From assembly GCA_964561945.1 (NCBI GenBank), contig CAZLQM010000004.1:1-63122 (forward strand): a stretch of 63,122 bases of DNA. Direction: 5' to 3'. Numbering within the stretch: position 1 is the stretch's first letter; every line of letters starts with the position of its first letter. The notes under the pieces were generated by a model. That model saw only the letters and a list, made by a program, of their open reading frames with translations. It did not search any database and was not told the origin of the DNA. This DNA comes from an uncultured Gammaproteobacteria bacterium (GTDB lineage Bacteria > Patescibacteriota > Microgenomatia > CAYXHB01). Below, piece after piece: positions 1-63,122 of the stretch. The position numbers and the translations under genes are program-made.

Positions 1-122
1 TGATCTACCAAGGTCCTCAACTCATCATGCAAATTAATCTTGATTTAATCGACCTTCTCCATCAGGACGGCTATACTTCTATCCATGAAGCCATCGGCGC
101 CGATCTCAAAAAAACCAAATAA
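1..122 (+). CDS. pyrD: dihydroorotate dehydrogenase, C-terminal fragment (gene begins upstream of the window)
   Basis: Reading from nt 3 gives IYQGPQLIMQINLDLIDLLHQDGYTSIHEAIGADLKKTK*. The GP..i...L...l...GY.SI.E.IG tail resembles class-1 DHOD C-termini. TAA at 120-122. Confidence 0.5.
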   Translation, partial: IYQGPQLIMQINLDLIDLLHQDGYTSIHEAIGADLKKTK

Positions 123-735
123 TTATTATTCCCAAGTCCGCCTAGATTTAATTGCATTAATCAAAAATCAACGCTTTACTAACATCCTCGAAATTGGTTG
201 TGGCCAAGGACTAACTCTCAAATATCTCCAAGATCATAATCTTGCCCAAACTACCTACGGCATCGAACTTGACCCACACCAATCCCAAATCGCCCGCACC
301 AACATCGACCACATATTCAATATCAACGTAGAAAACACCACCCTCCCCAAGGTCAAATTCGACCTTATTCTCTTACCTGACATTCTCGAGCATCTCCACG
401 ATCCTGCCAAATTATTAACCCAACTTCACTCCTCACTTGCCCCAAACGGAACAGTACTTATCTCCGTCCCCAACATCCAACACATTAGCGTTCTAAGACA
501 ACTCCTCCGCGGTCGTTGGGACTACGCCGACTCAGGCATCATGGATCGCACTCATCTCCATTTCTTTACCCAAAAAACTATTCTTGAAATGCTTAACCAA
601 ACAGGTTACAAAATCTTAGACATCCAACACAACGGCGGTTATCTGCCTCACTGGAAAAGCATTCTTAACTTCCTCACAGGCAACCGCCTCCGACCTTGGT
701 TCGTCCCACAGTGGCTAATCAAGACAAAAATATAA
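85..735 (+). CDS. class I SAM-dependent methyltransferase
   Basis: 216-aa ORF with motif I ILEIGCGQGL, DLILLPDILEHL and VLISVPN post-motifs. The start overlaps the pyrD tail, so the true start is uncertain. Confidence 0.85.
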   Translation: MKPSAPISKKPNNYYSQVRLDLIALIKNQRFTNILEIGCGQGLTLKYLQDHNLAQTTYGIELDPHQSQIARTNIDHIFNINVENTTLPKVKFDLILLPDILEHLHDPAKLLTQLHSSLAPNGTVLISVPNIQHISVLRQLLRGRWDYADSGIMDRTHLHFFTQKTILEMLNQTGYKILDIQHNGGYLPHWKSILNFLTGNRLRPWFVPQWLIKTKI

Positions 736-830
736 ATATAGTTTCCAACTCAAGCACTAACCTTTCTTACCTTTCTCTTACAAACCCTTCACGCACACGC
801 CCACCCTATTGTTATATTATCCTCATAATT

Positions 831-2339
831 ATGTCTATATTTACCACCAAACACGAAACTACACCTTTGGATTACTCGTCTATACCTGACCACTACAGAT
901 TAATACCTTATCATGCGCCCACTCCCAAAATAGACCGCATCAAGGGCTTTTTGTCTCGACTGCCTCTTCCTAAACCCTCACCTTCCCAAGCACCAAACAA
1001 CTCCCCATTACCAAACACCCCCTCACCCGACAATCCTCCCAACATCTCCCAACCATCCAATCCCGAGCTCCAATACATCCAAGCTCACACAGGCCTAACT
1101 TCTCAAGACTTAATTGAATCTATTCCCCGCAAACCCAAAGAACTATCTCAAGACCAAATCCAACCACGATACGAACAACTCCATCAATTTCTTCAAACCC
1201 GCGAATCTCTCCCCGATCGAATTGACACCTCAACTCAAACTCTCATAACCCAAGCCTTAGTTCTATTCCCCCATCAATCCAATCCCGACACAACCAAACT
1301 AGACGCTTCCGGTCGTCGAGCCACCAAGCTACTTTTCGACTCCCTTCCCAACCGCGCAGACATTCCTGAGCTTATCTCCCAAGCCCGAAATCTCAGCCAA
1401 CAACACAACATCACCCATATTCCATGGCACTTAATCCAAAAATCCCTCATCGGCCAACAAACATACCACCAAAAAATCACCCTACTCCGCCAAGCCAATA
1501 TTCCGACAGAAGGTCTATCCGCAATCCAAGTCAACCAAAAAATCAAAGATCTCAACGCATCTCCTTCACCCCAAACCATCCCAACTCCAAACATCAGACT
1601 TCCCCAGTTCAAAGAACAACTCAAACGAATAACTCAATACTTCCAACACCGCCATCCTGCACTAACCCGCATTGCTCTTGCTGGAGCCATGGCTTTTACC
1701 CTTAACAGTTGTACCCCACGCCACAATTATGAATCAGAAATTCCCACCAACCCCAACAATCACACCCAAATCATTCCTTCCTCCACCCAATATATGGACA
1801 TTCTCTTGGCCCAAAACAGTCACTATCAACCTCACGCAGAACTTCCCGCATCTCCACATACAACCACAGTTGAAACTAACGCGCCTCTTACTCCAACTCA
1901 ATTTTCTAACCTAGATCTCGACCCCGCTCGCATGTCTCGAATTGAAGACCGCGTCTCATCTCTCGAAACCCAAATTGATAATCGCATCTCAATTCTCGAG
2001 TCCCAAGTCATCGAGCTTACCCAAACACCCGAAGTTGCCCCCTCTCCTCCCACCCCCACTCCCGTTCCGATCGTTTTCAATATCCAACCAATTACTCGTC
2101 CCGACGCTCCGCCTCTTTCAATTCCCATTCCCGAAATCACTCCACCAGCCATCCATAATGCCGAACAATTACCTCAATCATATACCGTCCAAAAAGGCGA
2201 TTGCCTGTCTGCCATTGCTGTTAAATATTATGGCCAAGGCAATGGTCATCTATACACTTTGATAGCCCAAACTAACCATATTCCCAATCCCGACCTCATC
2301 TATCCGGGCCAAACCCTCTCTATACCCACCCTCAACTAG
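831..2339 (+). CDS. LysM domain-containing membrane protein with a Pro/Gln/Thr-rich N-terminal region
   Basis: C-terminal LysM motif YTVQKGDCLSAIAVKYYG...IPNPDLIYPGQTLSIP. Internal TM segment ALTRIALAGAMAFTLNSC. Coiled-coil-like segment RIEDRVSSLETQIDNRISILESQ. Start trimmed to the in-frame ATG at 831 (MSIFTTKHE), because the track start at 696 overlaps the previous gene. Confidence 0.75.
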   Translation: MSIFTTKHETTPLDYSSIPDHYRLIPYHAPTPKIDRIKGFLSRLPLPKPSPSQAPNNSPLPNTPSPDNPPNISQPSNPELQYIQAHTGLTSQDLIESIPRKPKELSQDQIQPRYEQLHQFLQTRESLPDRIDTSTQTLITQALVLFPHQSNPDTTKLDASGRRATKLLFDSLPNRADIPELISQARNLSQQHNITHIPWHLIQKSLIGQQTYHQKITLLRQANIPTEGLSAIQVNQKIKDLNASPSPQTIPTPNIRLPQFKEQLKRITQYFQHRHPALTRIALAGAMAFTLNSCTPRHNYESEIPTNPNNHTQIIPSSTQYMDILLAQNSHYQPHAELPASPHTTTVETNAPLTPTQFSNLDLDPARMSRIEDRVSSLETQIDNRISILESQVIELTQTPEVAPSPPTPTPVPIVFNIQPITRPDAPPLSIPIPEITPPAIHNAEQLPQSYTVQKGDCLSAIAVKYYGQGNGHLYTLIAQTNHIPNPDLIYPGQTLSIPTLN

Positions 2340-2372
2340 AAAACATTCCCTCTCTGCTAAAATAAATTCACC

Positions 2373-2819
2373 ATGGCCCAATTGCTTACGTTGTTTATCA
2401 TAGCCAATATCGTCATTTGGATTATCGCCATCTACAAGACGTCATTCCAACACCAGCCCTTCCACATTACTCCACTTCTCGCCCCTCTTGGCATCTTTGT
2501 CTGGGGAGATTCGGTTATCTTTAGCTTTTTCTGGTTTGCATCCGCTTCTCTCTGTCTTTATCTTAACGATTTTATTCTTTTTGGTTTAACTTTTTCTGTC
2601 TTTTGGGTTATCCGAGGCCTAGGTGAAACTATCTACTGGATATCAGAGCAATTTGCTACCAATCACCGCAATCATCCCCACACTCTCATCGGTTCTAGAA
2701 TTTTCCCCCAAGATTCCATCCACTTCGCCTATCAGATAATAGCCCAAACCATCACTATCATTGCAATTCTCACTTCCGTCTATTTTGCTCATCTCTGGCT
2801 CACTGTCTCACTTCATTGA
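2373..2819 (+). CDS. hypothetical integral membrane protein (about 4 TM segments)
   Basis: 148-aa ORF with hydrophobic helices. It is the only + strand gene in the window that ends in TGA. Confidence 0.55.
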   Translation: MAQLLTLFIIANIVIWIIAIYKTSFQHQPFHITPLLAPLGIFVWGDSVIFSFFWFASASLCLYLNDFILFGLTFSVFWVIRGLGETIYWISEQFATNHRNHPHTLIGSRIFPQDSIHFAYQIIAQTITIIAILTSVYFAHLWLTVSLH

Positions 2820-2845
2820 AAACTAACTCATCTCCAGAGTATAAT
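2816..2845 (+). promoter_or_regulatory. sigma70-like promoter candidate for the small-ORF cassette
   Basis: TTGAAA (2816-2821), an 18-nt spacer, then TATAAT (2840-2845), about 110 nt upstream of the ATG at 2956. Confidence 0.4.
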
Positions 2846-2955
2846 ATCCAACGTAGATCGTTTTCATATCACATTCGATATGAATCATCGACCTGCAAAA
2901 GTACATTTATAAGTCAAGCAGTTACTATTTTTTTCAAGCTCAAAGGAGAGCAACC

Positions 2956-3321
2956 ATGTCTGTATTGATTACTGACGACCGCATCAAATTCGGGGTCCAA
3001 GAAGCCTCCAAAATCCGCGCTCTTACCCCCGACACAATTGAATCAATTAATAATATTAGGATTCACACTCGCGGGATGGAACAAACACCCGAGGATTTGG
3101 CGCACCAAATCAATCGGTGCACCGCTCCCCAATCCAAGTCGGACGTCCTTCGGATTCTAGCAAACGCGTTCTCTGATCAACCAGATTTTGTTAAGCAAAC
3201 CAAGGGGCTGGTTTTCCCCAAGGTCACATCCCATGAAAACCAACCCACGGCCCCCAAGCGCACTCGACCTCTCCTGATGGATCTCAGCACTTTCTACCGC
3301 CGAACTGGTACTGGAAAATAG
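2956..3321 (+). CDS. hypothetical small protein (121 aa)
   Basis: ORF preceded by AAAGGAG 7 nt upstream of the ATG and followed by a strong intrinsic terminator. No motif recognised. Confidence 0.55.
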   Translation: MSVLITDDRIKFGVQEASKIRALTPDTIESINNIRIHTRGMEQTPEDLAHQINRCTAPQSKSDVLRILANAFSDQPDFVKQTKGLVFPKVTSHENQPTAPKRTRPLLMDLSTFYRRTGTGK

Positions 3322-3342
3322 TTAACTTCCCACGACTTCCCA

Positions 3343-3377
3343 AGTCTGGGCTCTTACCCAAGGGTCCAGACTTTTTT
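3343..3377 (+). terminator. rho-independent terminator
   Basis: A 13-bp stem (3343-3355 pairs with 3360-3372, including 2 G-U pairs), a 4-nt loop ACCC, then T6 at 3372-3377. Confidence 0.8.
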
Positions 3378-3461
3378 GTTGTATAATTCACTCCAAGTTC
3401 ACTAAAGCTACAACTGCGTAGCTCCACATGAAGCACATTCACAAACAGAAAGGTTAGACTG

Positions 3462-9094: not shown

Positions 9095-12000
9095 ATGTCA
9101 AATTCCGACGCTTCATACCTTGATAAAATACAATTCCCCTCCTCTCTCAACCAATCCTTCATCGCCAAATATCTCAAGAACTTTAGAATTCCTCTCCTCA
9201 TTATTTTAACCCTAATTCTCGTCGGAGTTTCTAGTTACAACCTCCTCCCCAAACGTCTTAATCCAGAAGTCAAAATCCCCATAATCACTGTCATTACTTC
9301 AGCTCCAGGATCAAATGCCACCGACATCGAAGACTTAATCACCAACCCCTTAGAAAAACAAATCAAACAACTCTCCAACATCAGTGAATTCAACTCCATT
9401 TCCCAAGACAACTTATCATTAATTACTATACAGTTTGAGTCAAAAATCCTTGCCAAAGATGCCCAAAATGACGTCCAAAACAAAGTAAACCAAGCCAATC
9501 TCCAAGGAATCCTTACTACTCCCCAAGTCCAGGCTCTCGATTTTGAAGATCAACCCATCTGGACTTTAGCAATCACAGGACTCCCCTCTCAAGAACTCAA
9601 CCAACAAGCTCAATTACTCAAAGAAAATCTCGAAAATCTATCTCTAATTAATCGAGTTACCCTCTCAGGAGCTCCTCAAAATCAAATAAACATCAATCTT
9701 GACCTTCAAAAAATCCAAAACTACGGTCTTAATATACCTCAAATTTCCACAGCCATTTCCCAAAGTTTACAAATCACTCCTGCAGGTTCTGTTTCCAACA
9801 ACAAATATAATTTTACAGTTGCAATAGCCTCATCTATCAACAATCTAGACGAACTCAGGAATCTTCCAATTTCAGTAGGGAACCAAATTCTTCCATTAGG
9901 ATCAATTGCTCAAATTATCCAACAACCCAAACCCAACTCTTCTCTCACCTATATTTCCAACTCACAAATCAAAAACGAAGAAGCAGTCATCCTCTCCATT
10001 TACAAAAATTCCCAAAGTGATATCGTCGCCACAGGCAATCAAGCCCAAGCCTCAATCGATCAATTTATAACCCAAAATCCCCAAATCAAACTCACTACCC
10101 TAACCAACGTCAGCCAAGATATCAATCAACAGTTCAGTGATTTAATTCGTGAATTCCGCACCACAATTTTGCTTGTAGGCGGCACACTGTTACTCTTCTT
10201 AGGTGTCAGACAAGCCTTAATCAGCTCTCTTACGGTACCCCTCACTTTTCTTTCTGCCTTTGCTATCATGCAGGCCTTCGGTCAATCAATTAATTTCCTA
10301 TCTCTCTTTGCCTTTTTACTTGCCCTAGGATTACTCGTTGACGACACCATCGTCATCGTCTCTTCAATGACTTCATATTATCAAACAAAAAAATTTACTA
10401 CCCTCCAAACAGGACTTCTCGTTTGGCGCGACACCATAGTCCCAATTTGGTCAACCACCCTTACCACCATTTGGTCATTCGTCCCCCTACTTCTCAGTAG
10501 TGGCATTATTGGAGAATTCATCAAACCAATTCCCATTGTTGTCACCGCCACCATGCTATCTTCAACCGCCATTGCTGTATTTATCACTCTTCCATTAATG
10601 ATCGTCATTCTCAAACCTCGTATCCCAACTAGAGTTACAATTTTAATCAAACTCATAACTTGGATCGCACTTCTCACCGCCGTTATATTTATTAGTCGCA
10701 ACACCCCGCTCCTTCCTCTAATCATTACAATTTTCATTATCATTACCATCATCACCTTATTAATTCGCAACCAACTTCAAACTCATACATCACCGTTCCA
10801 AAAACAACCTTCAATCAAAAAAATCTCTTCTTTTGCCCAACAATTAATGGATAAGAGACTCATAAATATTCAACCTCTAAGCAACGGATACTATAATTTA
10901 ATCAAGCGAATTTTATCCAACAAATCAAGTCGTCGCAAAGTAGTCATTGCCAGCATCTCATACGCCCTGATTTGTTTTGCTCTCTTGCCTCTAGGTCTAG
11001 TCAAAAACGAATTTTTTCCCAAAACAGATAACGACATATTCTACATACAGCTCAAACTACCTTCAGGCACTTCAATCAATCAAACCAATACCAAAGCTCT
11101 TAACTTCATTGATACTCTATCATCTATACCTTATATAACTTTTATTACCACGGAAGTTGGCAAATCTCTTAGTGATCTCCAAGCCTTATCTTCCCAAGAT
11201 AACCAAATCCTTTATACATTGCGACTTGTACCTGAAAAGGACCGTCCATATAAATCTTATGAAATTACCGAGCATCTCCGAAATCAATTTCAAAATTATT
11301 CAGACACGATTCAAGTCCTCGAAGTAAGCGCAGGCCCCCCAGCTGGAGCTGACATTCAAGTTACATTTTTAGGAGATAATCTTAACGATTTAGAAACCAC
11401 CGCAGATAAAGCAGTTGCATATCTCAAACAACAACCCTCTGTTGCCAATCCCAACAAATCTCTTAACCCCAGCACCAGTCAAATCAATTTCCAAATAGAC
11501 TCTCTAGCCCTTCAACAATCTCAAATCTCCCGCAACCAAATTTCACAAGCCGTCAACCAAATCACCAAACCCCAAACTCTCGGCGCCCTTAGTTTAGCCA
11601 CCGAAACCACCGACCTTCCTCTGGTCCTTAATCTAACTTCCCAACCGCCTCAGGTAGAATTACTTAATCAAATCACCATTCCCAATTCAAAAGGACAACT
11701 TATTCCACTCTCTACTCTTGGTACATGGCAGGCTCAAATCAGCCCTCAAATTATCACCCACGACAACGCTACTAGATCAGTCACAGTTACAGCTGCCACT
11801 AGACCCAACTTCAATACAACCCAAGCCAACCAAGATTTACTTACTCAAATCCAATCATGGCAACTTCCTTCAAATGTTACATGGAAAACAGGCGGTGTAA
11901 ATCAAGAAAACGCTCGTTCTATTCAATCCATCCTCCTTGCTATGCTCTTATCCGCAGTCTTGATTCTCATCACCATGGTACTTCAATTCAGCTCTTTCCG

Positions 12001-12421
12001 CGCGGCTCTAATCGTTATTTTAGTTATTCCACTCGCTGTTTCTTCTGTCTTCCTAGCATTTGCTCTAACTCAAACTCCGGTATCATTTCCTGCCCTCATT
12101 GGTATCTTGTCACTTTTTGGAATTGTCGTAACTAACTCAATGTTTATCGTCGACAAAATTAATATAAACCTCAATCAAAAAATGCCTTTTATCGAAGCGA
12201 TCGCTGACGCAGGAGCTAGCCGCCTTGAGCCAATCATTCTTACCAAATTGTCAACTATCCTTGGCCTCCTTCCCATCACCCTAGCTGACCCCCTTTGGCG
12301 TGGACTTGGTGGTGCAATCATCTCAGGTATTGCCCTCGCTTCTATCATCATGCTTCTTTTCATCCCAGTCGTAACCTATGCCTGGCTCAAACCCAACTCC
12401 GCTAATCCCACAAATTCATAG
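9095..12421 (+). CDS. efflux RND transporter permease (AcrB/HAE family)
   Basis: 1108 aa with two 6-TM bundles. Typical segments include SLFAFLLALGLLVDDTIVIV and ILSLFGIVVTNSMFIVD, with large periplasmic loops. Confidence 0.9.
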   Translation: MSNSDASYLDKIQFPSSLNQSFIAKYLKNFRIPLLIILTLILVGVSSYNLLPKRLNPEVKIPIITVITSAPGSNATDIEDLITNPLEKQIKQLSNISEFNSISQDNLSLITIQFESKILAKDAQNDVQNKVNQANLQGILTTPQVQALDFEDQPIWTLAITGLPSQELNQQAQLLKENLENLSLINRVTLSGAPQNQININLDLQKIQNYGLNIPQISTAISQSLQITPAGSVSNNKYNFTVAIASSINNLDELRNLPISVGNQILPLGSIAQIIQQPKPNSSLTYISNSQIKNEEAVILSIYKNSQSDIVATGNQAQASIDQFITQNPQIKLTTLTNVSQDINQQFSDLIREFRTTILLVGGTLLLFLGVRQALISSLTVPLTFLSAFAIMQAFGQSINFLSLFAFLLALGLLVDDTIVIVSSMTSYYQTKKFTTLQTGLLVWRDTIVPIWSTTLTTIWSFVPLLLSSGIIGEFIKPIPIVVTATMLSSTAIAVFITLPLMIVILKPRIPTRVTILIKLITWIALLTAVIFISRNTPLLPLIITIFIIITIITLLIRNQLQTHTSPFQKQPSIKKISSFAQQLMDKRLINIQPLSNGYYNLIKRILSNKSSRRKVVIASISYALICFALLPLGLVKNEFFPKTDNDIFYIQLKLPSGTSINQTNTKALNFIDTLSSIPYITFITTEVGKSLSDLQALSSQDNQILYTLRLVPEKDRPYKSYEITEHLRNQFQNYSDTIQVLEVSAGPPAGADIQVTFLGDNLNDLETTADKAVAYLKQQPSVANPNKSLNPSTSQINFQIDSLALQQSQISRNQISQAVNQITKPQTLGALSLATETTDLPLVLNLTSQPPQVELLNQITIPNSKGQLIPLSTLGTWQAQISPQIITHDNATRSVTVTAATRPNFNTTQANQDLLTQIQSWQLPSNVTWKTGGVNQENARSIQSILLAMLLSAVLILITMVLQFSSFRAALIVILVIPLAVSSVFLAFALTQTPVSFPALIGILSLFGIVVTNSMFIVDKININLNQKMPFIEAIADAGASRLEPIILTKLSTILGLLPITLADPLWRGLGGAIISGIALASIIMLLFIPVVTYAWLKPNSANPTNS

Positions 12422-26983: not shown

Positions 26984-28753
26984 CTACATTCCAACCCGCA
27001 AAAACATCTTCTCCATTTCTTTCCATGTAATCAATATCTCTACAGGTCTGCCATGCGGACACGTAAAAGGTAATTTACACTTGCGCAAATCCTCAACCAA
27101 ATACTCCATCTCTCTCTGAGTCAATCGTTGTCCCCCTTTAATTGCGCTACGACACGACAAATACGTCAAAACCTTCAACTGCTCATCACTTACTCCATCC
27201 ACATTTGATTCCTCTATCAAATCCCCCGCCATCTCTACCAATGCTCGTCTCATATTCACTTCCTCCCATCCGCTTGGGACACTCAAAACACGCACCTCAT
27301 CTTCCACAAAATCTAATTCAATTCCTATCTTTTTCAACAATTCTCTTTGTTCATAAAGAGCTTCTCTTTCTCTCAAGTCAACCTCTATCTTTACTGGCAA
27401 CAGCACGTCCACTCTTCTACTTATCTTTTCCTTCAATCCCTCCATTAACTTCTCATACCTTATTCTTTCGTGAGCTGCATGCTGATCAATCAACGCCATC
27501 CCTCGCTCCTCCTCAAACACTATATACAAATTGTGCATCTGCACAAATTTATTACCTAAATTGCGATCACTCGTTCCCGTCTCATCATTAACCACGTCAC
27601 CCAACCCTAACAACTCCAAATTCAAATCCAAATTTACCGCCCTCTTTTCCCCTTGCCATCTCTCCCGATTTATCGCCAAACCCCCTCCCCCACCTCTCAA
27701 TCCTGATTTCCAGTCAAATTCTTCTATTACTCTAGAATCTTCTTCCCCCCGCACAAATTTCAGGTCTTCTTTCTTTATCTCGCCATCAATCATCTTTGTA
27801 ATCGCACTATAAACCCCAAACGGGTTCACATATCTAACTTCTTCCTTCCTCGGATGGACATTTATATCCACCATATCTCCAGGCATAACCAAATACAAAA
27901 TCCACGGCACCTGATATCTTGGTGGCAACAGACTTCCCAAGGCTTCTTTTACACTTCGCATAATCCCTCGATCTATCACCACTCGATCATTCACAATTAC
28001 CACCTGCCTTGAGCCTTTCTCCTTGCCCAGTTGTGGCTTACCCACCATCCCCCATATTTTCCAATGCAAATGATCATATCCGACTTCAAACATTTGTTTC
28101 ACCACTTCCGAACCATAAATACTTCTAATTCTTTCTTTAATATCTCCACCGCTTACCAAGTCCAAAAACAACTTCCCGTTATGCCAGAGCCTTATTCCCA
28201 CACTAGGACACGCCAACGACAGTCGCTCAACCATTTCCAAGCAATATCTCCATTCCGTGCTTCCCGTCCGCAAAAACTTCCTCCTTGCAGGTACATTAAA
28301 AAACAAATCTTCTACCACTACTCTCGTCCCTCTACTCATTCCAATCTCTCTTTTAGTTATTAATTTTCCTCCTTCAACTACAACTTCCCAACCCCCTACT
28401 TGTTTTTCAACCTTGCTTGCAATCCTAAATTTTGACACAGCACAAATACTCGCCAACGCTTCCCCCCGAAACCCCATCGTCTTAACTGCCAACAAATCCT
28501 CAATCTTACCAATCTTGCTTGTTCCATATCTCACAATCGCCAATTCCAAATCCGATTTTCCCATACCACCACCATTATCAATTATTTCTATCTTATCTAT
28601 TCCTCCATTTTCTAATCGAATCTCTATCTCATTTGCTCCTGCATCAACTGCATTATCCAATAATTCTTTGACAATTGAGGCGGGCCTCTCCACTACTTCA
28701 CCCGCCGCAATCTGATCCGCTACCTCACTTGATAATATTTTTATCTTTCCCAT
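26984..28753 (-). CDS. mutL: DNA mismatch repair protein MutL
   Basis: [34 protein letters not shown] and [10 protein letters not shown]. The C-terminal region contains [11 protein letters not shown] and TCPHGRP. Confidence 0.95.
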
Positions 28754-28773: not shown

Positions 28774-31368
28774 CTAAATCTTCTCCTTAATCCGAGCTAT
28801 CCAGTTCAAAGCCTCAACCGGAGTCATCTCATTTATTTTAATGTCCCTTAATTCATCAATTACTGCCTCTTCTCGTTCACTCTCCAACCCCATCTGCACT
28901 ACCATTTGCGGTTTCTTAATTGCCATTTTTTCCTTACCTTCCAATAAAGACAACACCTCTTTAGCTCGAGTTATTACTTCCTCTGGCAAACCCGCCATTT
29001 CTCCCACAGCTACACCATAACTGTGCGAAGCTCCACCACTCACCACTTTATGCAAAAATATCGGCACCCCCTTATCATCAGCCACAGTCGCCTGATAATT
29101 TACAATCTGCTTATACTCATTCGCCAATTGTTGCAATTCATGATAATGAGTTGCAAATAATGTCAATGGTCCACAATTACTCCATTTTTTCGATACCAAA
29201 TACTCACTTATAGCCCACGCAATACTTATCCCATCAAACGTACTTGTACCTCGCCCAATTTCATCCATCACCACCAAACTTCTCTCTGTCGCATTTGCTA
29301 AAATAGTTGAAGTCTCAACCATTTCCACCATAAAAGTAGACAATCCTTTTCCCATTGCATCGCTTGCACCACTCCTTACAAAAACTCGATCCCCCAACGA
29401 CCATTCCATCTTCTTTGCTGGCACAAAAGATCCCATCTGTGCCATTAATACCAAAATCGCCACTTGTCGCAAATACACAGACTTACCGGCCATGTTTGGA
29501 CCAGTCAAAATTATTACATTTTTATCACAATCCAAACTCACATCATTGGACACAAACCTCCCTTGATTTATCTTTTCTACCACTGGATGTCTACCTTCCT
29601 TGATATTCAAACCTTTACTATTAATCAAAATTGGCCGTACATATCTATTTTTCACTCCAATCTCAGCCAAATTACTTATCACATCAATTACTCCTATCGC
29701 ATGCGAAAACTCTTGTATAACTCGCAAATTATCACTAATCAACGCTACCATTCTCTCATAAATCCTCGATTCAATTACTAATATTTTCTCATCAGCTTCC
29801 AACACTTTAATTTCATGTTTCTTCAAATCATTCGTAATAAATCTCTCACCGTTAACTAACGTTTGTTTCCGTTCATAGTCTTCAGGCACCAAATTCAAAT
29901 TTGCATTACTTATCTCAATATAAAAACCAAACACTCGATTATATTTTACCTTCAGTGAATTAATCCCTGTTCTTTTTCTCTCTTGCTGTTGATACATTTC
30001 TAACCATTCCTTGCCTCCTTTTTTAACTAAACGCAAATCATCCAATTCTTTATCAACACCATCTTTGATTAAACCACCAGATTTTACATCTCCTGCAGGT
30101 TCATCAACCAATATTCTATCCAATTCCTTCCACAAAATACCCAAATTTTTCTCATCTATTTTTTTCACCTGCTCACCCAACAACTCCGTCGCACCTCCCA
30201 ACAACTCTCGTAAAACCAATCCTTCTTTAATCGAATCTCGAATACCCGCCATATCCCGTCCATTCCCCCACCCAGTCAACAACCTTGTGGCCATCCGTTC
30301 TCCATCTCGTATTTTTCCCAAACTTTCTCTTATACTTCTTCGTAAATCACTATTTTTCACCAAACTCCAAACCGCATTAAGCCGTTGATTAATTAGTTCC
30401 TCATCTACCAAAGGCCGTCCCAGCCAATTCCGTAGCAATCTACCACCCATCGAAGTTTTCGTTTCATCCAAAACACTAATCACACTTTCTCCTTTCTCCC
30501 CGCCCAAAACCCCAAACAACTCAAGATTAAGAATCGTCGCCCTATCCAAGTTCATTAACTTATTGTTACCCCATTTACCAATCGCCCGCACCTGAACTGC
30601 AGACTTTTTCTGCGTATACTCCAAATAATCAAGCAAGGCTCCGCTTGCTTCAATTGCCAAATCATCTCTTCCTCTCTCAAGTTCCCATACCTCCAGTGGC
30701 TTACCCAAAACACTTCTTATTTTCTCGCTAGTTTTCGCCACACCACTCTTCCATTCTCTAAACAGAAAAATATTCGCATTCGTATGCAATTTGATAAAAG
30801 CCAATAAATCAGTATTTTCATATATCTTTGCGGGCAATATGCACTCAACAATATTTATGACTCCCAGCTCATTTACCAATCCCGACATTCCATCTCCTAG
30901 TAATTTTTGATTGCACAAAAACTCTCCCGTTCCCGCATCAATCATCGCCATCCCAAAACTTTTCTTCTCTATCACCAAGCTCACAATATAATTAGACCTC
31001 TTCACTTTCTCGACATCTCCCAACATCGTTCCGGCACTCACCACTCTCACGACTTCTCTCTTTACCAATCCAGGTAAATTCGGATCACTAACCTGCTCCG
31101 CAATAGCCACCCTATACCCTTTGCTAATTAATTTTGAAATATATCCCTCAGCAGCATGATACGGCACTCCTGCCATCGCAATCTTGCCATCCTTGCCCTT
31201 GTGTCGACTCGTCAAAGTAATATCCAATATTTTTGCTCCAATCCGAGCATCATCCATAAACATTTCATAAAAATCTCCCAACCTAAAAAACAAAACACAC
31301 TCAGGGTATTGCTCCTTAATCTCCATGTATTGCTTCATCATTGGAGTCGAAAACTCATCACTGCTCAT
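28774..31368 (-). CDS. mutS: DNA mismatch repair protein MutS
   Basis: TPMMKQYMEIKEQYP, FFRLGDFYEMF, Walker A GPNMAGKSVYLRQ, DEIGRGTSTFDG and THYHEL. Start set at the ATG at 31368; a GTG at 31392 is also open. Confidence 0.95.
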   Translation of the reverse strand: MSSDEFSTPMMKQYMEIKEQYPECVLFFRLGDFYEMFMDDARIGAKILDITLTSRHKGKDGKIAMAGVPYHAAEGYISKLISKGYRVAIAEQVSDPNLPGLVKREVVRVVSAGTMLGDVEKVKRSNYIVSLVIEKKSFGMAMIDAGTGEFLCNQKLLGDGMSGLVNELGVINIVECILPAKIYENTDLLAFIKLHTNANIFLFREWKSGVAKTSEKIRSVLGKPLEVWELERGRDDLAIEASGALLDYLEYTQKKSAVQVRAIGKWGNNKLMNLDRATILNLELFGVLGGEKGESVISVLDETKTSMGGRLLRNWLGRPLVDEELINQRLNAVWSLVKNSDLRRSIRESLGKIRDGERMATRLLTGWGNGRDMAGIRDSIKEGLVLRELLGGATELLGEQVKKIDEKNLGILWKELDRILVDEPAGDVKSGGLIKDGVDKELDDLRLVKKGGKEWLEMYQQQERKRTGINSLKVKYNRVFGFYIEISNANLNLVPEDYERKQTLVNGERFITNDLKKHEIKVLEADEKILVIESRIYERMVALISDNLRVIQEFSHAIGVIDVISNLAEIGVKNRYVRPILINSKGLNIKEGRHPVVEKINQGRFVSNDVSLDCDKNVIILTGPNMAGKSVYLRQVAILVLMAQMGSFVPAKKMEWSLGDRVFVRSGASDAMGKGLSTFMVEMVETSTILANATERSLVVMDEIGRGTSTFDGISIAWAISEYLVSKKWSNCGPLTLFATHYHELQQLANEYKQIVNYQATVADDKGVPIFLHKVVSGGASHSYGVAVGEMAGLPEEVITRAKEVLSLLEGKEKMAIKKPQMVVQMGLESEREEAVIDELRDIKINEMTPVEALNWIARIKEKI

Positions 31369-32723: not shown

Positions 32724-33344
32724 CTACCAACGGCTACCACCTCGGTCGCCACCTCCTCGGTAACCACCTCGGTCGCTTCCACCGCCACCTCCTCGGTAAC
32801 CACCTCGGTCACCGCCACCACCGCCTCGGTAACCGCCTCGGTCTCCTCCGCCACGGTTATATCCGCCACGGTCTCCACCTCCTCGATAACCTCCACGATC
32901 TCCGCCACCACCGAATTCACGGCGTTCTGGCTTTGGTTGAGCAATATTAACTTGCATTGGCCTATCAGCCAAAACATAATTGTTAAATTGTTTAACAGCA
33001 GCTTCAGCTTCACTTGGGCTTGAAAATTCTACAAATCCAAATCCCTTGGACCAATCCTGTTTGAATTTGTCCATGATAATGACAGCATCAACAACTTTAC
33101 CAACTTGCGAAAATAATTCTCGCAAATCTTCAGCTCTTACAGTGTATGCAAGATTACCGACATAAAGTTTGGCATTGTTAGATCCCGCAGATTGCGCTAC
33201 CGCATCTTGGTCACCAGCCATACCACGTTGTGTTTCTTCGTCTACAGTCATGTCATCTGACACAACTCCATCGTCAGCTACAACAGTTCCATTGTCATCA
33301 GCTACTACTACTTCATCTTCTTCTTGAGTGTTTGTATCGTTCAT
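32724..33344 (-). CDS. RRM-type RNA-binding protein with an acidic N-terminus and an RGG-repeat tail
   Basis: RNP-2 is LYVGNL and RNP-1 is KGFGFVEF. The tail carries six GDRGGY(R/N)-type repeats. GGAGG lies 11 nt upstream of the ATG at 33344; the track GTG at 33356 lies inside the SD. Confidence 0.9.
   Translation of the reverse strand: MNDTNTQEEDEVVVADDNGTVVADDGVVSDDMTVDEETQRGMAGDQDAVAQSAGSNNAKLYVGNLAYTVRAEDLRELFSQVGKVVDAVIIMDKFKQDWSKGFGFVEFSSPSEAEAAVKQFNNYVLADRPMQVNIAQPKPERREFGGGGDRGGYRGGGDRGGYNRGGGDRGGYRGGGGGDRGGYRGGGGGSDRGGYRGGGDRGGSRW
32727..32912 (-). repeat. in-frame tandem repeats encoding the (G)nDRGGYRGG tail
   Basis: Repeated cctcggtaacc/acctcggtc units on the + strand. The protein tail reads GGGGDRGGYRGGGDRGGYNRGGGDRGGYRGGGGGDRGGYRGGGGGSDRGGYRGGGDRGGSRW. 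Confidence 0.85.
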
Positions 33345-33527
33345 GAAAAAAGTCACCTCCTCCCCAATCCTCTTCTGTCAACTTTCCTCTCCAATGTTAA
33401 TTTCGATGCCGAAAGCTCTCCAAAACTAAAAGATTGTAATCTTATTATATCACAACCTGCCTCTTGCTCCTGAGCAATTAGTTAGATAAGCTAAATATGC
33501 GCACATCTATCACCACCAATTCTGCCC

Positions 33528-36677: not shown

Positions 36678-37142
36678 TCAATAGTTCCTCTCTAACGCCA
36701 ACAAATACTCTTTTCTCCACAACTCTCCACTATATCCACCCATCATCCCATTCGATCTCACAACTCGATGACACGGCCCCACTATCACTACTGGATTACA
36801 TCCGCAAGCCCGTCCCACAGCTCGAGCTCCACCCTTACAATTTATTAGCTTTGCAATCTCTCCATAACTCATAGTTATTCCATAAGGAATCTTCGCCATC
36901 ACCTGCCACACATTCTTTTGAAACTTACTCCCTCTTAATTCTAAAGGTAAACTAAATCCCTGACGCACACCCTCCAAATATTCATTTATCTCAGTTTTTG
37001 CTTGTATCACTATCCGATCATTTCTCCCATCTCCACCCTTTTCCTCAATTGCCCCAAATCCAATCCCAACAATTTTTCCATTCTCTACTTCAACCCACAT
37101 AACTCCAATTTTAGTCTCGAAATTACTTCTCATACCAATCAT
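36678..37142 (-). CDS. ogt: methylated-DNA--protein-cysteine methyltransferase
   Basis: Active site VGPCHRVV, plus VWQVMAKIPYGITMSYGEIA. Its ATG overlaps the upstream gene's TGA (ATGA). Confidence 0.9.
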   Translation of the reverse strand: MIGMRSNFETKIGVMWVEVENGKIVGIGFGAIEEKGGDGRNDRIVIQAKTEINEYLEGVRQGFSLPLELRGSKFQKNVWQVMAKIPYGITMSYGEIAKLINCKGGARAVGRACGCNPVVIVGPCHRVVRSNGMMGGYSGELWRKEYLLALERNY

Positions 37143-53855: not shown

Positions 53856-53899
53856 CATCTTTCCAACAACTTCTCAAATAATGTTAAAATCAAGTTCAC

Positions 53900-53986
53900 G
53901 GAGGAGTGCGAGAGCGGTCTAATCGGCACGCCTGGAAAGCGTTGCGGGGGGAAACTCCCACAAGGGTTCGAACCCCTTCTCCTCCG
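53900..53986 (+). tRNA. tRNA-Ser (anticodon GGA)
   Basis: Acceptor GGAGGAG/CTCCTCC, anticodon loop CTGGAAA, long variable arm, T arm AAGGG-TTCGAAC-CCCTT. CCA is not encoded. Confidence 0.85.
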
Positions 53987-54017
53987 CCCTCACCAAATCC
54001 ACCAAAACATACCCCAA

Positions 54018-59123: not shown

Positions 59124-59364
59124 AATATGTTAAACGTACCACTCCAAGCACTCTGGCGGCGTTTCTTGGACAAAGTTCAAACTCTTCACGAGGAAAGTCC
59201 CAATGAATTTGAAGACTGATTCGCGCGCCTCGCGACGTTTTGTGGTAGTGCGAAAGTCCGCTCACACACTCCATCAACTCCGCATTGCTTGTTCATTCCG
59301 CTATAGCGACTTCACGCTGGCTGCTTCGGCGTTTGTAGTGTGTTCGCTTTGTGGCTTCGATGAC
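59124..59364. other. GC-balanced, hairpin-rich non-coding segment (candidate small RNA or island junction)
   Basis: No credible ORF. Stems are TCCAAG/CTTGGA (59143-59170), TTCAAA/TTTGAA (59176-59212) and TCGCG/CGCGA (59221-59235). Also contains the palindrome CGCTATAGCG (59299-59308), GAGGAAAGTCC at 59190-59200 and GAAAGTCC again at 59252-59259. Confidence 0.3.
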
Positions 59365-59814
59365 CTACCCAATCAAGCTCAAATCACCCTCAAGAACTAC
59401 TGGTTGCATTCCAAGTATTTCTTCCTTGAAAGCAGACTCTTTGGGTAAGCTGTTTAAAATGAAAATCTTTTTATCTTTTCCAAACGCGTAACCGATCTCC
59501 AAGAAAGTATTGCCACCGATGTAATCCTCAACTCCACGCTTTTCGTAGTTGGTAATTAAAACTGCGTCAGATTCGTCAATCTTTTTAAGATGTGCTTTTA
59601 TCGCCTTACCTTTCTTTTTCCAAACTTCATGACCTTGTGGAAATGCGTCAACTCCACCGTGACGATCAAAAAAGCTACCGACCGAAGTATCATCGCCTTT
59701 AGTTTCAAATTCCAGTTCTGGAGCCACAACTGTATGCCCAAGTTTTTCGAGCTTCTTCTTCACCTCTTGAAATTGATGATAGAAAGCCATTGATGAGCAG
59801 ATGCAGATTTTCAC
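59365..59814 (-). CDS. nucleoside 2-deoxyribosyltransferase-like protein (islet copy)
   Basis: 149 aa. MKICICSSMAF... and GGNTFLEIGYAFGKDKKIFILN resemble the NDT-fold catalytic-Glu motif. Confidence 0.5.
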   Translation of the reverse strand: MKICICSSMAFYHQFQEVKKKLEKLGHTVVAPELEFETKGDDTSVGSFFDRHGGVDAFPQGHEVWKKKGKAIKAHLKKIDESDAVLITNYEKRGVEDYIGGNTFLEIGYAFGKDKKIFILNSLPKESAFKEEILGMQPVVLEGDLSLIG

Positions 59815-59817
59815 AAT

Positions 59818-60381
59818 TCAAAAATTAAAATGATTAACAATTAACTCGGCAGACTCATTTGCAGAATGTCTGGTCGTGTCAATTCTTAGATGATTAGGAA
59901 AAGGAAATTCATCCTCTTCAGAGTTCATTCTGTAATTCTCAGTGTCAGCAAGTAAGTTGTTATTTGACCACTCAACATTTCTTTTCGAGGTTTTATGTTG
60001 CAAGCGGTTTTCGGTGGCGTTTCGCTCCAACCGAGTATCTTTATCACCCAGAAGTTCAACGTAGTAAACACTATGACCACCTGCAATAAATTTATCATTA
60101 AATTCTCTTACTTTTCCCCAGTCGCTTTCAAGATCAAAAGCCCATATCATGGTGAATATAAAACCCCCCAGATCTTTTGAAGTAGCTACCTCGTTAATGA
60201 TTTCTGTTCGAAAAAGGTTCACCAATCTTTTTCCCGCTGTAGTGAAGTAATCGAAAAAGTGCGAAACCAAATCAATTGTCATATGATTATGGAGTAAAGG
60301 ATAGCCAGTCAATTTAAACAATTCTTGTGCTATGGTCATCTTACCTACTGCATGGGGAGCAAATATAAATACACTATTCAT
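59818..60381 (-). CDS. P-loop NTPase / small-molecule kinase-like protein
   Basis: 187 aa. The Walker-A-like motif is IFAPHAVGKMT, in a compact kinase-sized fold. It overlaps the upstream HIT gene by 8 nt. Confidence 0.45.
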   Translation of the reverse strand: MNSVFIFAPHAVGKMTIAQELFKLTGYPLLHNHMTIDLVSHFFDYFTTAGKRLVNLFRTEIINEVATSKDLGGFIFTMIWAFDLESDWGKVREFNDKFIAGGHSVYYVELLGDKDTRLERNATENRLQHKTSKRNVEWSNNNLLADTENYRMNSEEDEFPFPNHLRIDTTRHSANESAELIVNHFNF

Positions 60382-60874
60382 AACTTTGTTTAATTTTTCC
60401 TGCTAATTCTTTCAAATCTTCAGGGTTTGCCATCGGTCCACTACCCGAAGAAATCCAACCCTCATAATTATCAAACCAGAATTCTTTTTCACTTAATACC
60501 TGTTTCCATTCACCTTGTTTTAAATATTCAGTGCCGTGCATAGGAACAAGCTTTACGTGAGCATAGTTAATGCCCGTGCCCTCCATTATTAGTCCAACTC
60601 TCCCAACATCATCAAAATAATTTTCAAGAACTTGTGCTACTTTTTTGGAGGCAATAATAAATTTTTGCAAAATATTATCAGGCATTTTTAGTACATCACT
60701 ATCGAAATGCTTTTTGGGTATTACACAACTAAATCCTTCTGTGTTTGGATCAATGGAAAGGAAAGCCATAAACTCTTCATCTTCCCAGAATTTTCCCGCA
60801 GTTTCTATATTTCCTGTAACGATCTCACAGAAAATACATTTATTGTCTTTTGTTGTTGGTTCGTATTTGCTCAT
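60374..60874 (-). CDS. HIT-superfamily protein with a degenerate histidine triad
   Basis: N-terminal KCIFCEIVTGN, typical of HIT proteins. The triad position reads NYAHVKLVPMHG instead of HxHxHxx. Confidence 0.55.
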   Translation of the reverse strand: MSKYEPTTKDNKCIFCEIVTGNIETAGKFWEDEEFMAFLSIDPNTEGFSCVIPKKHFDSDVLKMPDNILQKFIIASKKVAQVLENYFDDVGRVGLIMEGTGINYAHVKLVPMHGTEYLKQGEWKQVLSEKEFWFDNYEGWISSGSGPMANPEDLKELAGKIKQSYE

Positions 60875-60887
60875 GTTTATTCTTTGA

Positions 60888-61514
60888 TTAGTCTTTTATT
60901 ATATCCTTGCTCAACCCAAAATTCATACGCTTTCCATACATTACATCATCAGGTATTTCTTGTTCAATCTGAAAACCTTTAGCTGGATACTCTTTGATTC
61001 GTTGCAAGCCTCCAACCATTGCATTTAGCCAGTGTTCGTCTTTACCGTTTGATTTATTTGGATATTCAGTTACAGGAATAGGTGGCGAAGTTACAATTAG
61101 CTCCACTTCTTTGGGCAAATGTACTTTTCCAGTCGCATAAGTTCGTCATTCCATATACGGTTCTTGCACTGCGATAATTGTTTTCGGACTTATGCCTCTT
61201 TACGCTAACAGATTAAGAGCAAATTTATAATTTTCACCAGTATTTTGAGATTTGTTCTCAGTCAAAATTACTTCATCAGGTACACCTAGTTTTCGTGCGA
61301 CATTGGCAAAAACTTCTACTTCGGCGCTTCCTACAAATTGCTCGCGACCTGGCTTGTGATTATAGACATCACCAGAACCAGAAAACAAAACAGTTGGGGC
61401 TAATCCGTCAAAATAAAGTTTTACCGCATATTCCGTAACTCGAATATCACGCTTCCCAAGCACAAAAATTACATCAGCTTTTTTAGCTCGTGATTTATGT
61501 GCATATAGTCCCAA
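60888..61514 (-). pseudogene. YdcF/DUF218-family gene with two in-frame stop codons
   Basis: A single frame reads ...KADVIFVLGKRD...SAEVEVFANVARKLGVPDEVILTENKSQNTGENYKFALNLLA[TAA 61200-61202]RGISPKTIIAVQEPYME[TGA 61146-61148]RTYATGKVHLPKEVELIVTSPP.... No frameshift. Confidence 0.7.
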
Positions 61515-61545
61515 GTTTTCTCAATTGCTTCTTGTTTATTCATAA

Positions 61546-61750
61546 TTATTCAAGTAATTCATCACTCGTTACCTCAAGCGCGGCAATTTTTTCAATAGTC
61601 ACCAATGTTGGATTATTTTTACCAGCTTCAATGTTGCTCACATATGCACGGGTCCAAGCCCGTCTTTCGGCAAACGTCGCCTTGCGTCATCTGCTTCTCC
61701 TCACGGATACGTTTGATATTGTTTCCCAACTTTATTGACGGATTTTTCAT
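61546..61750 (-). pseudogene. XRE-family (Cro/C1-type) HTH regulator with a 1-nt insertion frameshift
   Basis: MKNPSIKLGNNIKRIREEKQMTQGDVCRKTGLD, then a shift at the GGG/CCC run (61650-61652). With one base removed it reads RAYVSNIEAGKNNPTLVTIEKIAALEVTSDELLE*. Total length is 205 nt, i.e. 3n+1. Confidence 0.65.
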
Positions 61751-61972
61751 ATCTGTAAGTACAGCATATTACTAGTTGTTGTTTGCTACAATCATGACAA
61801 CCTCTTCAAAGCGACGAAGCCAAAACCATAAAATTTCCTATCATTTTTAGTGCGGCTCCCCCAGACCCCCCGCCGGAAAAATAATTGTAAGGAAATTTTT
61901 GGTTTTGGTTAGCGACCGAAGGGAGCGCGAGACGACACGATCGCTCCTGCAGTTTCAGGCAAAAGTGAAAAT

Positions 61973-62063
<91 letters not shown>

Positions 62064-62081
62064 CTAAAGTTACAAATACGG

Positions 62082-62155
62082 TGCACCCAGGGGGATTCGA
62101 ACCTCCGACCTACAGTTCCGCAAACTGTCGCTCTATCCAACTGAGCTATAGGTGC
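62082..62155 (-). tRNA. tRNA-Arg (anticodon GCG)
   Basis: The reverse complement is GCACCTA-TA-GCTC-AGTTGGATA-GAGC-G-ACAGT-TTGCGGA-ACTGT-AGGTC-GGAGG-TTCGAAT-CCCCC-TGGGTGC-A. There is one A-C mismatch in the T stem. Confidence 0.8.
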
Positions 62156-62213
62156 ATTAAGCCTATTTTACCTCATTTATCACTTTTTATACTATTTTCG
62201 CTTCAACCTAAAT

Positions 62214-62807
62214 CTACTTTACACTCCATTTAATTCTTCGTTCCAACCATTTAGCCGATTTATCCACCCAATTAGGCAAAGGCTCATCCTCAACCAAAAA
62301 CTCAACCAATACCTCTCTCAACACCGCCTCAGTTTCATCACTATCAATCATCACTCGCAAATGTCGTGGCCACACCTGCAACAACTCAATCACCAGCATC
62401 CGATTACCCTCTTTACCTTCAACCCAAAACCGCGTCATGCTCTCCCAATAATAAATTTTATTACTAGTTTCAATTCCCCAAGTCAACAATTTGTGAGTCG
62501 CTTTTTGGGGTTTTACCGTCCCCAAGACATACCAAAGAAACACAAAACTCGCAAGCATAATCACAGGAATAATTCCTTCAATAAAAAACAATATCACTCC
62601 CAATAACAACACTCCCGCCAAAATCGTACTAAACACTTCTCTATTTAACTGAGTAAACGGCCGATCATAAGCACTCCACTCCATTATCAATTCTTTCTGA
62701 ACAGGTCCACCAACCCGTGGTGAAATTTCCAGTCCTCCATCTTCCTCATCCATCAACACATCTTCTAATTCCTCTTCTTTTACTCCAGTTTCTTTAGTTG
62801 TTGCCAT
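62214..62807 (-). CDS. hypothetical membrane protein (acidic N-terminus, two TM helices)
   Basis: Start trimmed to MATTKETGVKEEE (ATG 62807). TM pair VFSTILAGVLLLGVILFFIEGIIPVIMLASFVFLWYVLG. Confidence 0.5.
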   Translation of the reverse strand: MATTKETGVKEEELEDVLMDEEDGGLEISPRVGGPVQKELIMEWSAYDRPFTQLNREVFSTILAGVLLLGVILFFIEGIIPVIMLASFVFLWYVLGTVKPQKATHKLLTWGIETSNKIYYWESMTRFWVEGKEGNRMLVIELLQVWPRHLRVMIDSDETEAVLREVLVEFLVEDEPLPNWVDKSAKWLERRIKWSVK

Positions 62808-62912
62808 AAAACGACTATACCAGAAATTAACTCCCAAGATAAGCTGACACAAACACAAACAACAGGTATAATTCACCTAAAGTTTTCAAAAAACTTACAC
62901 ATTAATAAATCA

Positions 62913-63003
62913 GGAGGAGTCGCATAGCTCGGTCCATTGCGGGGGATTGCTAATCCCCTGAGTCGTAAGACTCACGTGGGTTCGAATCCCACCTCCTCCG
63001 CCA
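62913..63003 (+). tRNA. tRNA-Ser (anticodon GCU), CCA encoded
   Basis: Acceptor GGAGGAG/CTCCTCC, anticodon arm GGGGA-TTGCTAA-TCCCC, variable arm GAGTC-GTAA-GACTC, T arm GTGGG-TTCGAAT-CCCAC. Confidence 0.9.
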
Positions 63004-63122
63004 ATCAAGTGGGATGAGAAGCTATAGTCCAGCAAGCGCAAGCGTGATGGAAATCCCACCTCCTCCACCAATCAAGTGGGATGAGAAGCTATAGTCCAGC
63101 AAGCGCAAGCGTGATGGAAATC
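63004..63122 (+). repeat. 67-bp tandem direct repeat, each unit ending in a copy of the tRNA-Ser(GCU) 3' end (att-like); truncated by the window edge
   Basis: Unit 1 is 63004-63070. Unit 2 begins at 63071 and its 52 visible nt are identical to unit 1. The tRNA 3' 19-mer aatcccacctcctccgcca (62985-63003) recurs at 63052-63070 with one change (g->a at 63067). Confidence 0.85.

Follow-up and report, generated by a model that had tools for sequence, protein, structure and literature searches.

The cause of the GC skew of bacterial chromosomes has been disputed for about thirty years, because the signal normally amounts to only a few percent; as a rule it comes together with a TA skew, and it always changes sign at the replication origin and at the terminus. 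The stretch of DNA considered here raises the question of how one strand of a bacterial chromosome can come to carry nearly three times as much C as G, and what this does to the proteins encoded on either strand. The stretch, contig CAZLQM010000004.1 of assembly GCA_964561945.1 (positions 1..63122, 63,122 nt in all, hereafter the window), contains about 50 genes distributed over both strands (the + strand accounts for 45% of coding bases, the - strand for 55%), and its + strand is C-rich and G-poor. This strand is composed of A 18920, C 18891, T 18444 and G 6867 (GC 40.8%), such that G accounts for 10.9% and C for 29.9% of its bases (binomial z = -75), and its GC skew, (G-C)/(G+C), is -0.467. 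A and T are balanced, with an AT skew of +0.013 in the whole window and 0.003 in intergenic DNA, and the net outcome is a strand in which three bases are about equal and G alone is depleted. All 21 of the 3-kb bins are negative (range -0.25 to -0.59), and the cumulative skew declines almost linearly along the window, weakening in the last 4 kb alone; no positional trend is seen over these 63 kb, which represent less than 10% of the likely genome.

The sign of the skew is tied to the DNA strand and not to the direction of transcription. This had been proposed in an initial, sequence-only reading of the window, whose hand counts on three short lines of the + strand (C17/G6, C15/G6 and C15/G2) are exact. 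In a gene set composed of the longest non-overlapping open reading frames (ORFs), the majority of them with Pfam support, skew at position 3, read in the coding sense, ranges from -0.27 to -0.85 in 22 of 22 + strand genes and from +0.62 to +0.96 in 27 of the 31 - strand genes; the four exceptions are three genes of a low-skew island, with values near 0, and a gene for an RRM-type protein (-0.33). Since the coding-sense sign reverses between + and - genes, the bias is constant on the DNA strand. Fourfold-degenerate sites, measured separately and given in + strand orientation, lead to the same result: the frequencies are A.225, C.425, G.033 and T.317 in + genes (GC skew -0.86), and A.299, C.335, G.044 and T.322 in - genes (GC skew -0.77). 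The skew is -0.49 in coding DNA, -0.40 in intergenic DNA from which the tRNA genes and the island were removed, about -0.15 in the island (59,124-61,972) and -0.07 in the five tRNA genes pooled, and codon position 3 is more skewed than positions 1 and 2. This gradient, from fourfold sites through coding and intergenic DNA to tRNAs, fits the earlier suggestion of a mutation pressure that is checked by selection, and the catalytic motifs which had been cited in its favor (GDNRKGSLDSR, HELRTPL and EASGTSGMKA) are indeed present on the + strand.

The skew is real and inherited, and it constitutes a graded trait of a clade. The same or a related skewed sequence occurs in at least seven other independent assemblies. 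An identical MutS is encoded on SPAdes contigs of two further ENA samples (ERZ795037 and ERZ795034), the DNA being 99.97-99.99% identical, and the loci L001 and L002, compared for polymorphism between samples, differ from the window by one base each, too little to be informative. In the relatives, skew was measured with mutS or dnaG set on the + strand, such that a positive value denotes a G-rich gene strand. It amounts to +0.46 in a sister lineage (L003, NCBI metagenome-assembled genome GCA_964444295.1, MutS 85% identical), +0.46 in a second such genome (L005, GCA_964464795.1, MutS 62%), +0.43 at both loci obtained from the Logan assembly SRR13612670 (L004 and L091, MutS 64% and DnaG 69%), +0.34 in Logan SRR24236059 (L087, DnaG 51%), +0.28 and +0.26 at two loci of Microgenomates group bacterium Gr01-1014_16 (L089 and L090, DnaG 45%), +0.17 in a metagenome-assembled genome of the Beckwithbacteria (L088, DnaG ~52% over 74% of its length) and +0.03 in a JGI contig (L006, MutS 50%). 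A second lineage, L095 (JGI 3300041082, Ga0452208_010559, 1-18485, DnaG ~52%), is at least as extreme as the window, with a skew of +0.49 at a higher GC content of 49%. The relatives are thus graded along a series of +0.03, 0.17, 0.27, 0.34, 0.43, 0.46 and 0.49, and in approximately 100 kb of strongly skewed relative loci there is no true sign reversal, only patches of low skew.

For comparison, 160 unrelated loci centered on mutS or dnaG, distant relatives among the matches listed in the genome and metagenome contig scans, served as controls and not to characterize the clade. Absolute skew in these controls has a median of 0.07, a 99th percentile of 0.207 and a maximum of 0.243; the skew of the window is about twice that maximum, which bears out the earlier claim that it exceeds the ordinary bacterial range. 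An artefact of sequencing, library preparation or assembly, for example a chemical conversion of bases, has no observation in its favor; its probability is negligible and for practical purposes this explanation is refuted. Double-stranded shotgun data are unable to produce a bias of one strand, the identical sequence was assembled from three samples, and diverged relatives (62-87% protein identity) in the NCBI, Logan and JGI data are also skewed. Moreover, the ORFs are intact, their motifs are conserved and their family matches are full-length, and the tRNAs and the island on the same contig are unskewed. Conversion of the bisulfite type in particular was rejected, given the equal amounts of A and T and the unbroken ORFs.

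Proteins are pulled in opposite compositional directions by the strand that encodes them. The ratio of amino-acid usage between the products of + and - genes is 2.5 for T, 2.5 for Q and 2.3 for P, and 0.37 for V, 0.36 for E and 0.43 for G; I, H and N are 1.6-1.7 times more common in the proteins of + genes, and V, E, G, M, W and R are 2.1-2.8 times more common in those of - genes. The division of the proteome into two composition classes, as described in the sequence-only reading, also holds when each protein is compared with its own orthologues by means of an index, in residue fractions, of (V+E+G+M+W+R) minus (T+Q+P+I+H+N). The AcrB-type RND permease (9095..12421, + strand; Pfam ACR_tran; third-position skew -0.74) exemplifies a protein pushed by the C-rich strand, with an index of -0.262 against -0.043 +/- 0.028 in 112 orthologues (z = -7.9). 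MutS (28774..31368, - strand), the example from the G-rich strand, is displaced in the opposite direction, with +0.146 against -0.028 +/- 0.040 in its orthologues (z = +4.4). The glucan phosphorylase, encoded on the + strand, shows a small shift (-0.055 against +0.043 +/- 0.069; z = -1.4), which fits the high conservation of this protein. The index of DnaG follows the local skew over six lineages (r = 0.91), and it was this relationship that led to L095. Three further DnaG orthologues (P0133, P0208 and P0228) have indices of G-codon amino acids that are higher still, and they may derive from additional extreme genomes.

The two classes of genes would be served by one set of tRNAs. Those found in the window by ARAGORN include tRNA-Ser(CGA) and tRNA-Arg(CCG) for G-ending codons, as well as tRNA-Ser(GGA), tRNA-Ser(GCU) and tRNA-Arg(GCG) for codons ending in C or U, a complement which fits a single translation apparatus serving two codon dialects. 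The tRNA-Arg(GCG) gene (62080-62155, - strand) adjoins that of tRNA-Ser(CGA). Bacterial tRNA-Arg usually has ACG in place of this GCG anticodon, and the variant may bear on the reading of CGN codons in a genome of two dialects.

The composition of degenerate sites and the replacements in conserved proteins allow the mutation spectrum to be decomposed. At twofold sites, where transitions alone are silent, the + strand exhibits a G/(G+A) of ~0.1, in NNR codons of + genes and in NNY codons of - genes, and a C/(C+T) of ~0.45-0.5, which indicates an equilibrium of transitions of about 9:1 against G and about 1:1 for C on this strand. The ratio of purines to pyrimidines at fourfold sites of the + strand, ~0.30:0.70, implies that transversions are asymmetric too. 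Amino-acid replacements attributable to single-nucleotide changes were polarised at sites where 70% or more of the orthologues agree; the counts are small and filtered by selection. In the RND pump, a net 25 G were lost from the + strand (G>A 24, G>C 6, G>T 4), and in MutS a net 15 (G>C 11, G>T 7, G>A 2), such that G is lost through G>A, G>C and G>T alike in genes of both strands. A comparison between the window and the sister lineage L003, to which it is 81% identical, reveals differences at 51% of fourfold sites; the counts are symmetric and near saturation, and the stationary composition is the same.

These patterns restrict the chemistry that may be involved. Residual G in + genes, or C in - genes, amounts to 2-7% of fourfold sites whatever the 5' base. 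A context-specific, APOBEC-like deaminase was considered and is unlikely, since the residue is the same after T, C or G. The AT skew of fourfold sites on the C-rich strand is -0.17 in + genes and -0.04 in - genes, and on the G-rich strand A is thus at least as frequent as T, with no concordant TA skew. Deamination of cytosine on the G-rich strand would leave that strand rich in T, and is therefore insufficient on its own; damage to guanine on the C-rich strand, by alkylation or oxidation, or an asymmetry of polymerase or repair that includes transversions, would be needed. The genes of mismatch repair and alkylation repair located in the window had been described as intact, and they pass their NCBIfam cut-offs: mutL (26984..28753, - strand; TIGR00585, 461 bits against a cut-off of 180), mutS (NCBIfam MutS, 903.9 bits against 480) and ogt, coding for an O6-methylguanine-DNA methyltransferase (36678..37142, - strand; Pfam DNA_binding_1; TIGR00589, 99.3 bits against 46.4). 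Domain scans of the proteins encoded in the window detected no UDG, MutY, Fpg or deaminase domains.

A small NUDIX hydrolase is encoded on the + strand (55264-55713), with an intact Nudix box (GGKLEYGETIAQGAMREIAEECG). It is the sole NUDIX protein of the window, and its similarity to MutT (8-oxo-dGTPase) is weak and far under the MutT cut-offs. In two skewed relatives, too, a NUDIX gene is found upstream of dnaG and no more than a few kb away, at 2563-3030 in the Beckwithbacteria locus L088 and at 1416-1787 in L089.

Several features escape the skew and provide internal controls. The tRNA genes, recognized by ARAGORN and Rfam, are located at 53899..53989 (tRNA-Ser(GGA), + strand), 57898-57970 (tRNA-Arg(CCG)), 61973-62063 (tRNA-Ser), 62080-62155 (the tRNA-Arg(GCG) mentioned above) and 62913-63003 (tRNA-Ser(GCU)). 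The low-skew island lies among them (59124..61972; -0.154, against -0.49 in coding DNA), flanked by tRNA-Arg (57898-57970) on one side and by the tRNA-Ser/tRNA-Arg pair (61973-62155) on the other. Its three ORFs (59365-59814, 59818-60381 and 60374-60874), with a third-position skew of about 0, code for a nucleoside 2-deoxyribosyltransferase-like protein, a P-loop/AAA-like protein and an HIT protein, and the remainder consists of approximately 1 kb without long ORFs, with fragments at 60888-61118 and 61200-61514. The P-loop ORF shares 69-73% DNA identity with AAA ATPase genes of Bacillus and Priestia plasmids. Judging by these matches and by its composition, the island was probably acquired by recent horizontal transfer and would not yet have taken on the skew of its host; in that case it provides an internal control and could be used as a clock of the mutational process. 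Similarly, 4-6 kb at 15000-20000 of L089 form a patch with a skew of 0.00 to -0.07, on a Gr01-1014_16 contig whose skew is otherwise ~+0.4. It contains genes for MerR, DUF4325/HATPase-like and DUF4256 proteins and looks like another low-skew island, probably of foreign origin.

The RRM gene (32724..33356, - strand; Pfam RRM_1) departs from the rule in another manner, as its third-position skew in the coding sense is -0.33, compared to ~+0.8 in the neighboring - genes. The encoded RNA-binding protein exhibits 100% amino-acid identity with that of the sister lineage, against 68-94% for the neighboring proteins. The protein carries an Arg/Gly-rich tail of repeats, which correspond to tandem units of 12-33 nt at 32736-32909 in the gene. 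The strand bias appears in this case to be overridden by strong purifying selection and selection on codons.

The relationships of the lineage connect the window with a phenomenon already described. The nearest named matches of its DnaG belong to Beckwithbacteria (49-52%), to Candidatus Microgenomates and the Microgenomates group (45-51%) and to Amesbacteria, and those of the RND pump to Woesebacteria, Roizmanbacteria and Microgenomates; from these matches we infer that the uncultured lineage is one of the Microgenomates (GTDB class Microgenomatia; Patescibacteria/CPR) and falls within or close to the order UBA1400. According to Kadnikov et al. 2020 (Microorganisms 8:320, PMC7143001), a G/C disparity of whole strands exists in Ca. 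Chazhemtobacterium aquaticus Ch65 and in other members of UBA1400. The closed genome of Ch65 (801,504 bp) contains 14.97% G, 29.83% C, 27.87% A and 27.33% T on one strand, a skew of -0.33; its cumulative GC skew decreases almost linearly around the whole chromosome with no AT trend, and unidirectional replication was proposed. Of its genes, 449 belong to the C-rich strand, which also carries the rRNA genes, and 389 to the G-rich one. The same paper reports a weaker disparity in closed genomes of Collierbacteria (19.44/25.51, -0.14) and Beckwithbacteria (20.66/28.26, -0.16) and none in the more distant family PJMF01. Ch65 also stands out as an obvious outlier among 17,873 complete genomes (Zhang 2024, PMC11514846), and a literature search found no later mechanistic work on the disparity.

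The novelty implied by the initial reading therefore does not hold, as a disparity without AT skew had been published in related Microgenomates (PMC7143001 and PMC11514846). Its view that the magnitude is unprecedented stands in part: the phenomenon has been known since 2020, yet the window is more extreme (-0.47 against -0.33 in Ch65), with 3-4% G at neutral sites. Both the window and L095 exceed Ch65, the published record holder. In other respects the window resembles the UBA1400-type disparity, in that its C-rich strand is the same regardless of gene orientation, AT skew is absent, the cumulative skew falls linearly, genes occupy both strands and the bacteria are members of one broad CPR group; it differs in strength and in that it is known over 63 kb only, the searches having found no longer contig of the lineage. 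The passages of Kadnikov et al. that were consulted contain no mention of an effect at the level of the proteome, a decomposition by codon class or a graded series across lineages. What the present analysis adds is this graded series, the independent and equally extreme lineage L095, the protein shift controlled by orthologues, the decomposition of transition and transversion asymmetry, and the internal controls provided by the tRNAs and the island.

Other systems share individual aspects of this pattern. In Borrelia burgdorferi, Chlamydia and Lawsonia intracellularis, codon and amino-acid usage is likewise split by the encoding strand, as far as the abstracts describe (PMC2671203, PMC2089121), but the skew of these bacteria is several-fold weaker, flips at the origin and terminus and is accompanied by a TA skew. 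Mitochondrial genomes, both of animals and of Galdieria sulphuraria (PMC4316638), exhibit skew of comparable size with one sign over the whole molecule, the amino-acid composition of their proteins is dragged along (PMC2779903), and one-directional or asynchronous replication has been invoked for them. The window, in contrast, is part of a bacterial chromosome with rpoD, dnaG, mutSL and ddl, and shows neither an AT skew of mitochondrial sign at neutral sites nor any sign of a gradient of exposure time. With the ordinary bacterial skew it shares a strand-tied imbalance of G and C and the location of dnaG and mutS on the G-rich strand, but the typical value given in the abstract of SkewDB is ~2.5% (PMC8941118), against 0.47 in the window.

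The placement of these genes also indicates which strand may be leading. The gene dnaG (51167-52846; Pfam) and, on the same strand, rpoD (49685-50770; Pfam) are encoded by the G-rich - strand. In each of the seven lineages of strongly skewed relatives that were sampled, as in the window itself, dnaG and mutS occupy the G-rich strand. The loci L087-L091 and L095 all have a positive skew with dnaG on +; only in the contig of L093/L094 (-0.11), which is outside the skewed series, is dnaG located on a mildly C-rich strand. Among the control loci, again among the matches listed, the locally G-rich strand carries dnaG in 69 of 80 cases and mutS in 56 of 80. The proposal of the sequence-only reading that the - strand is leading is supported by this placement and by the 55% of coding bases on that strand, and opposed by the reported location of the rRNA genes of Ch65 on the C-rich strand; that the G-rich strand is the leading one is plausible. 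Orthologues of mutS or dnaG on the C-rich strand were considered as a natural experiment, but the two candidates, P0008 and P0134, derive from weakly skewed genomes (-0.15 and -0.11), one of them of low GC, and were discarded.

The explanation preferred here, with a probability of approximately 0.6, is a heritable mutational asymmetry linked to the replication strand, graded among Microgenomates, on a chromosome replicated unidirectionally as was proposed for Ch65. Such a strand-specific bias would strip G from one strand, and equally C from its partner, at every type of site, and would drive near-neutral sites on the C-rich strand to ~3-4% G against 34-43% C. Selection would protect codon positions 1 and 2, the tRNAs and the catalytic motifs, and the proteins of the two strands would drift to opposite compositions. 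The difference between the strands would most likely be that between leading and lagging, on a chromosome whose copying proceeds entirely, or nearly so, in a single direction, as the sign is constant over 63 kb and around the published closed chromosomes of relatives. The G-rich - strand would then probably be leading, and the fork would run from high to low window coordinates.

Several observations weigh against this explanation. The assignment to UBA1400 is based on the names of best matches and not on phylogeny. The window covers only 63 kb, so that a sign flip may exist elsewhere in the genome, and it lacks an origin, a terminus, dnaA and any cluster of DnaA boxes (35 box matches against 28 expected). 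Unidirectional replication accounts for the constant sign but leaves a magnitude about ten times the usual value unexplained. Simple deamination of cytosine on the G-rich strand should yield more T than A there, yet at fourfold sites A is at least as frequent as T. Finally, the rRNA genes and 449 of the 838 genes of Ch65 are located on its C-rich strand, a poor fit to a G-rich leading strand (PMC7143001).

The alternatives differ mainly in how the chromosome would be copied. Ordinary bidirectional replication with an extraordinarily strong asymmetry of leading and lagging strands would place the window inside one replichore, with the flip located elsewhere. A stretch of 63 kb is silent in this respect, since with two switch points in ~0.8-1 Mb most windows of this length would include neither, and the G-rich strand carries dnaG and mutS, as it does in ordinary bacteria. 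The sequence-only reading had recommended a search for such a flip at the origin and terminus, but the published closed relatives show none: in three related closed genomes the G and C totals of a single strand are unequal and the cumulative skew is monotonic (PMC7143001), which symmetric bidirectional replication cannot produce. Together with the lack of true reversals in the strongly skewed relative loci, this renders the bidirectional alternative unlikely. Slightly less likely still is a strand-asynchronous mode of replication, by strand displacement or in a manner resembling a rolling circle, in which one parental strand would remain single-stranded for long and gather damage. In base composition (A 30, C 30, T 29, G 11%) and in the magnitude of its skew, the + strand resembles mitochondrial DNA of animals and Galdieria, for whose mitogenome one-directional or rolling-circle replication has been invoked (PMC4316638), and the ~9:1 asymmetry of transitions at twofold sites equals the expectation for deamination of single strands. 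On the other hand, the complete DnaG, which includes its DnaB-binding domain (Pfam), points to a conventional replisome. Models based on exposure time predict a gradient, yet none is seen over 63 kb and the cumulative skew of Ch65 is reported as near-linear; moreover, C>T plus A>G deamination by itself would leave more A than T on the C-rich strand, and the AT skew of neutral sites has the other sign.

The possibility that selection or transcription maintains the asymmetry, through a preference for certain codons, the loading of mRNAs with purines or the avoidance of G-rich structures on one strand, is very improbable, and as a main cause it is largely refuted by the strand-following sign. Fourfold sites do exceed intergenic DNA (-0.8 against -0.40), and + and - genes differ somewhat in their fourfold C and A, such that a secondary component linked to transcription or translation exists. 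However, the sign is the same under both gene orientations and in intergenic DNA, and + mRNAs are pyrimidine-rich whereas - mRNAs are purine-rich, such that no single preference of the coding strand suffices. The conserved proteins, moreover, are compositionally degraded in comparison with their orthologues, which is not in keeping with selection as the driving force.

The gene content of the window looks like that of a bacterium of the candidate phyla radiation. It codes for a LysM protein, LepB, an HlyD/AcrB pump, a ClpB-like ATPase, RpiB, TIM and FIST proteins, a histidine kinase, a response regulator and MsrAB, in addition to MutL, MutS, Ogt, the RRM protein and the glucan phosphorylase. 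PMT-like, DUF2079 and GT2 envelope proteins, UppP, RpoD, DnaG and Ddl complete the inventory. At the end of the contig, a unit of 67 bp is repeated 2.1 times with 98% identity (62985-63122), from within the 3' end of tRNA-Ser(GCU) to the last base; it could be an att-type duplication of an integrated element, or a repeat that broke the assembly.

The present work places a known disparity on a quantitative scale, on which the same kind of signal as in ordinary bacteria is about ten times stronger and related lineages are found at every intermediate strength. Metagenome data alone could show which genes of replication or repair vary along with the skew, what mutation spectrum is specific to each strand and whether copying proceeds in one direction. 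The disparity is also a warning for tools of binning, gene calling, phylogenetics and origin finding, all of which assume Chargaff's second rule. The lineage constitutes a natural experiment on how far mutation pressure can shift the composition of proteins while their function is kept. A more far-reaching idea, offered tentatively as it is rather unlikely, is that asymmetric copying, whether unidirectional or strand-asynchronous, is combined with a lineage-specific and tunable defect or enzyme which destroys G (or C) on one template, and that this would be the strongest asymmetry known in a cellular chromosome. If that were true, the graded series from 0.03 to 0.49 would let comparative genomics find the responsible gene, and that gene would give the chemical cause of GC skew in general.

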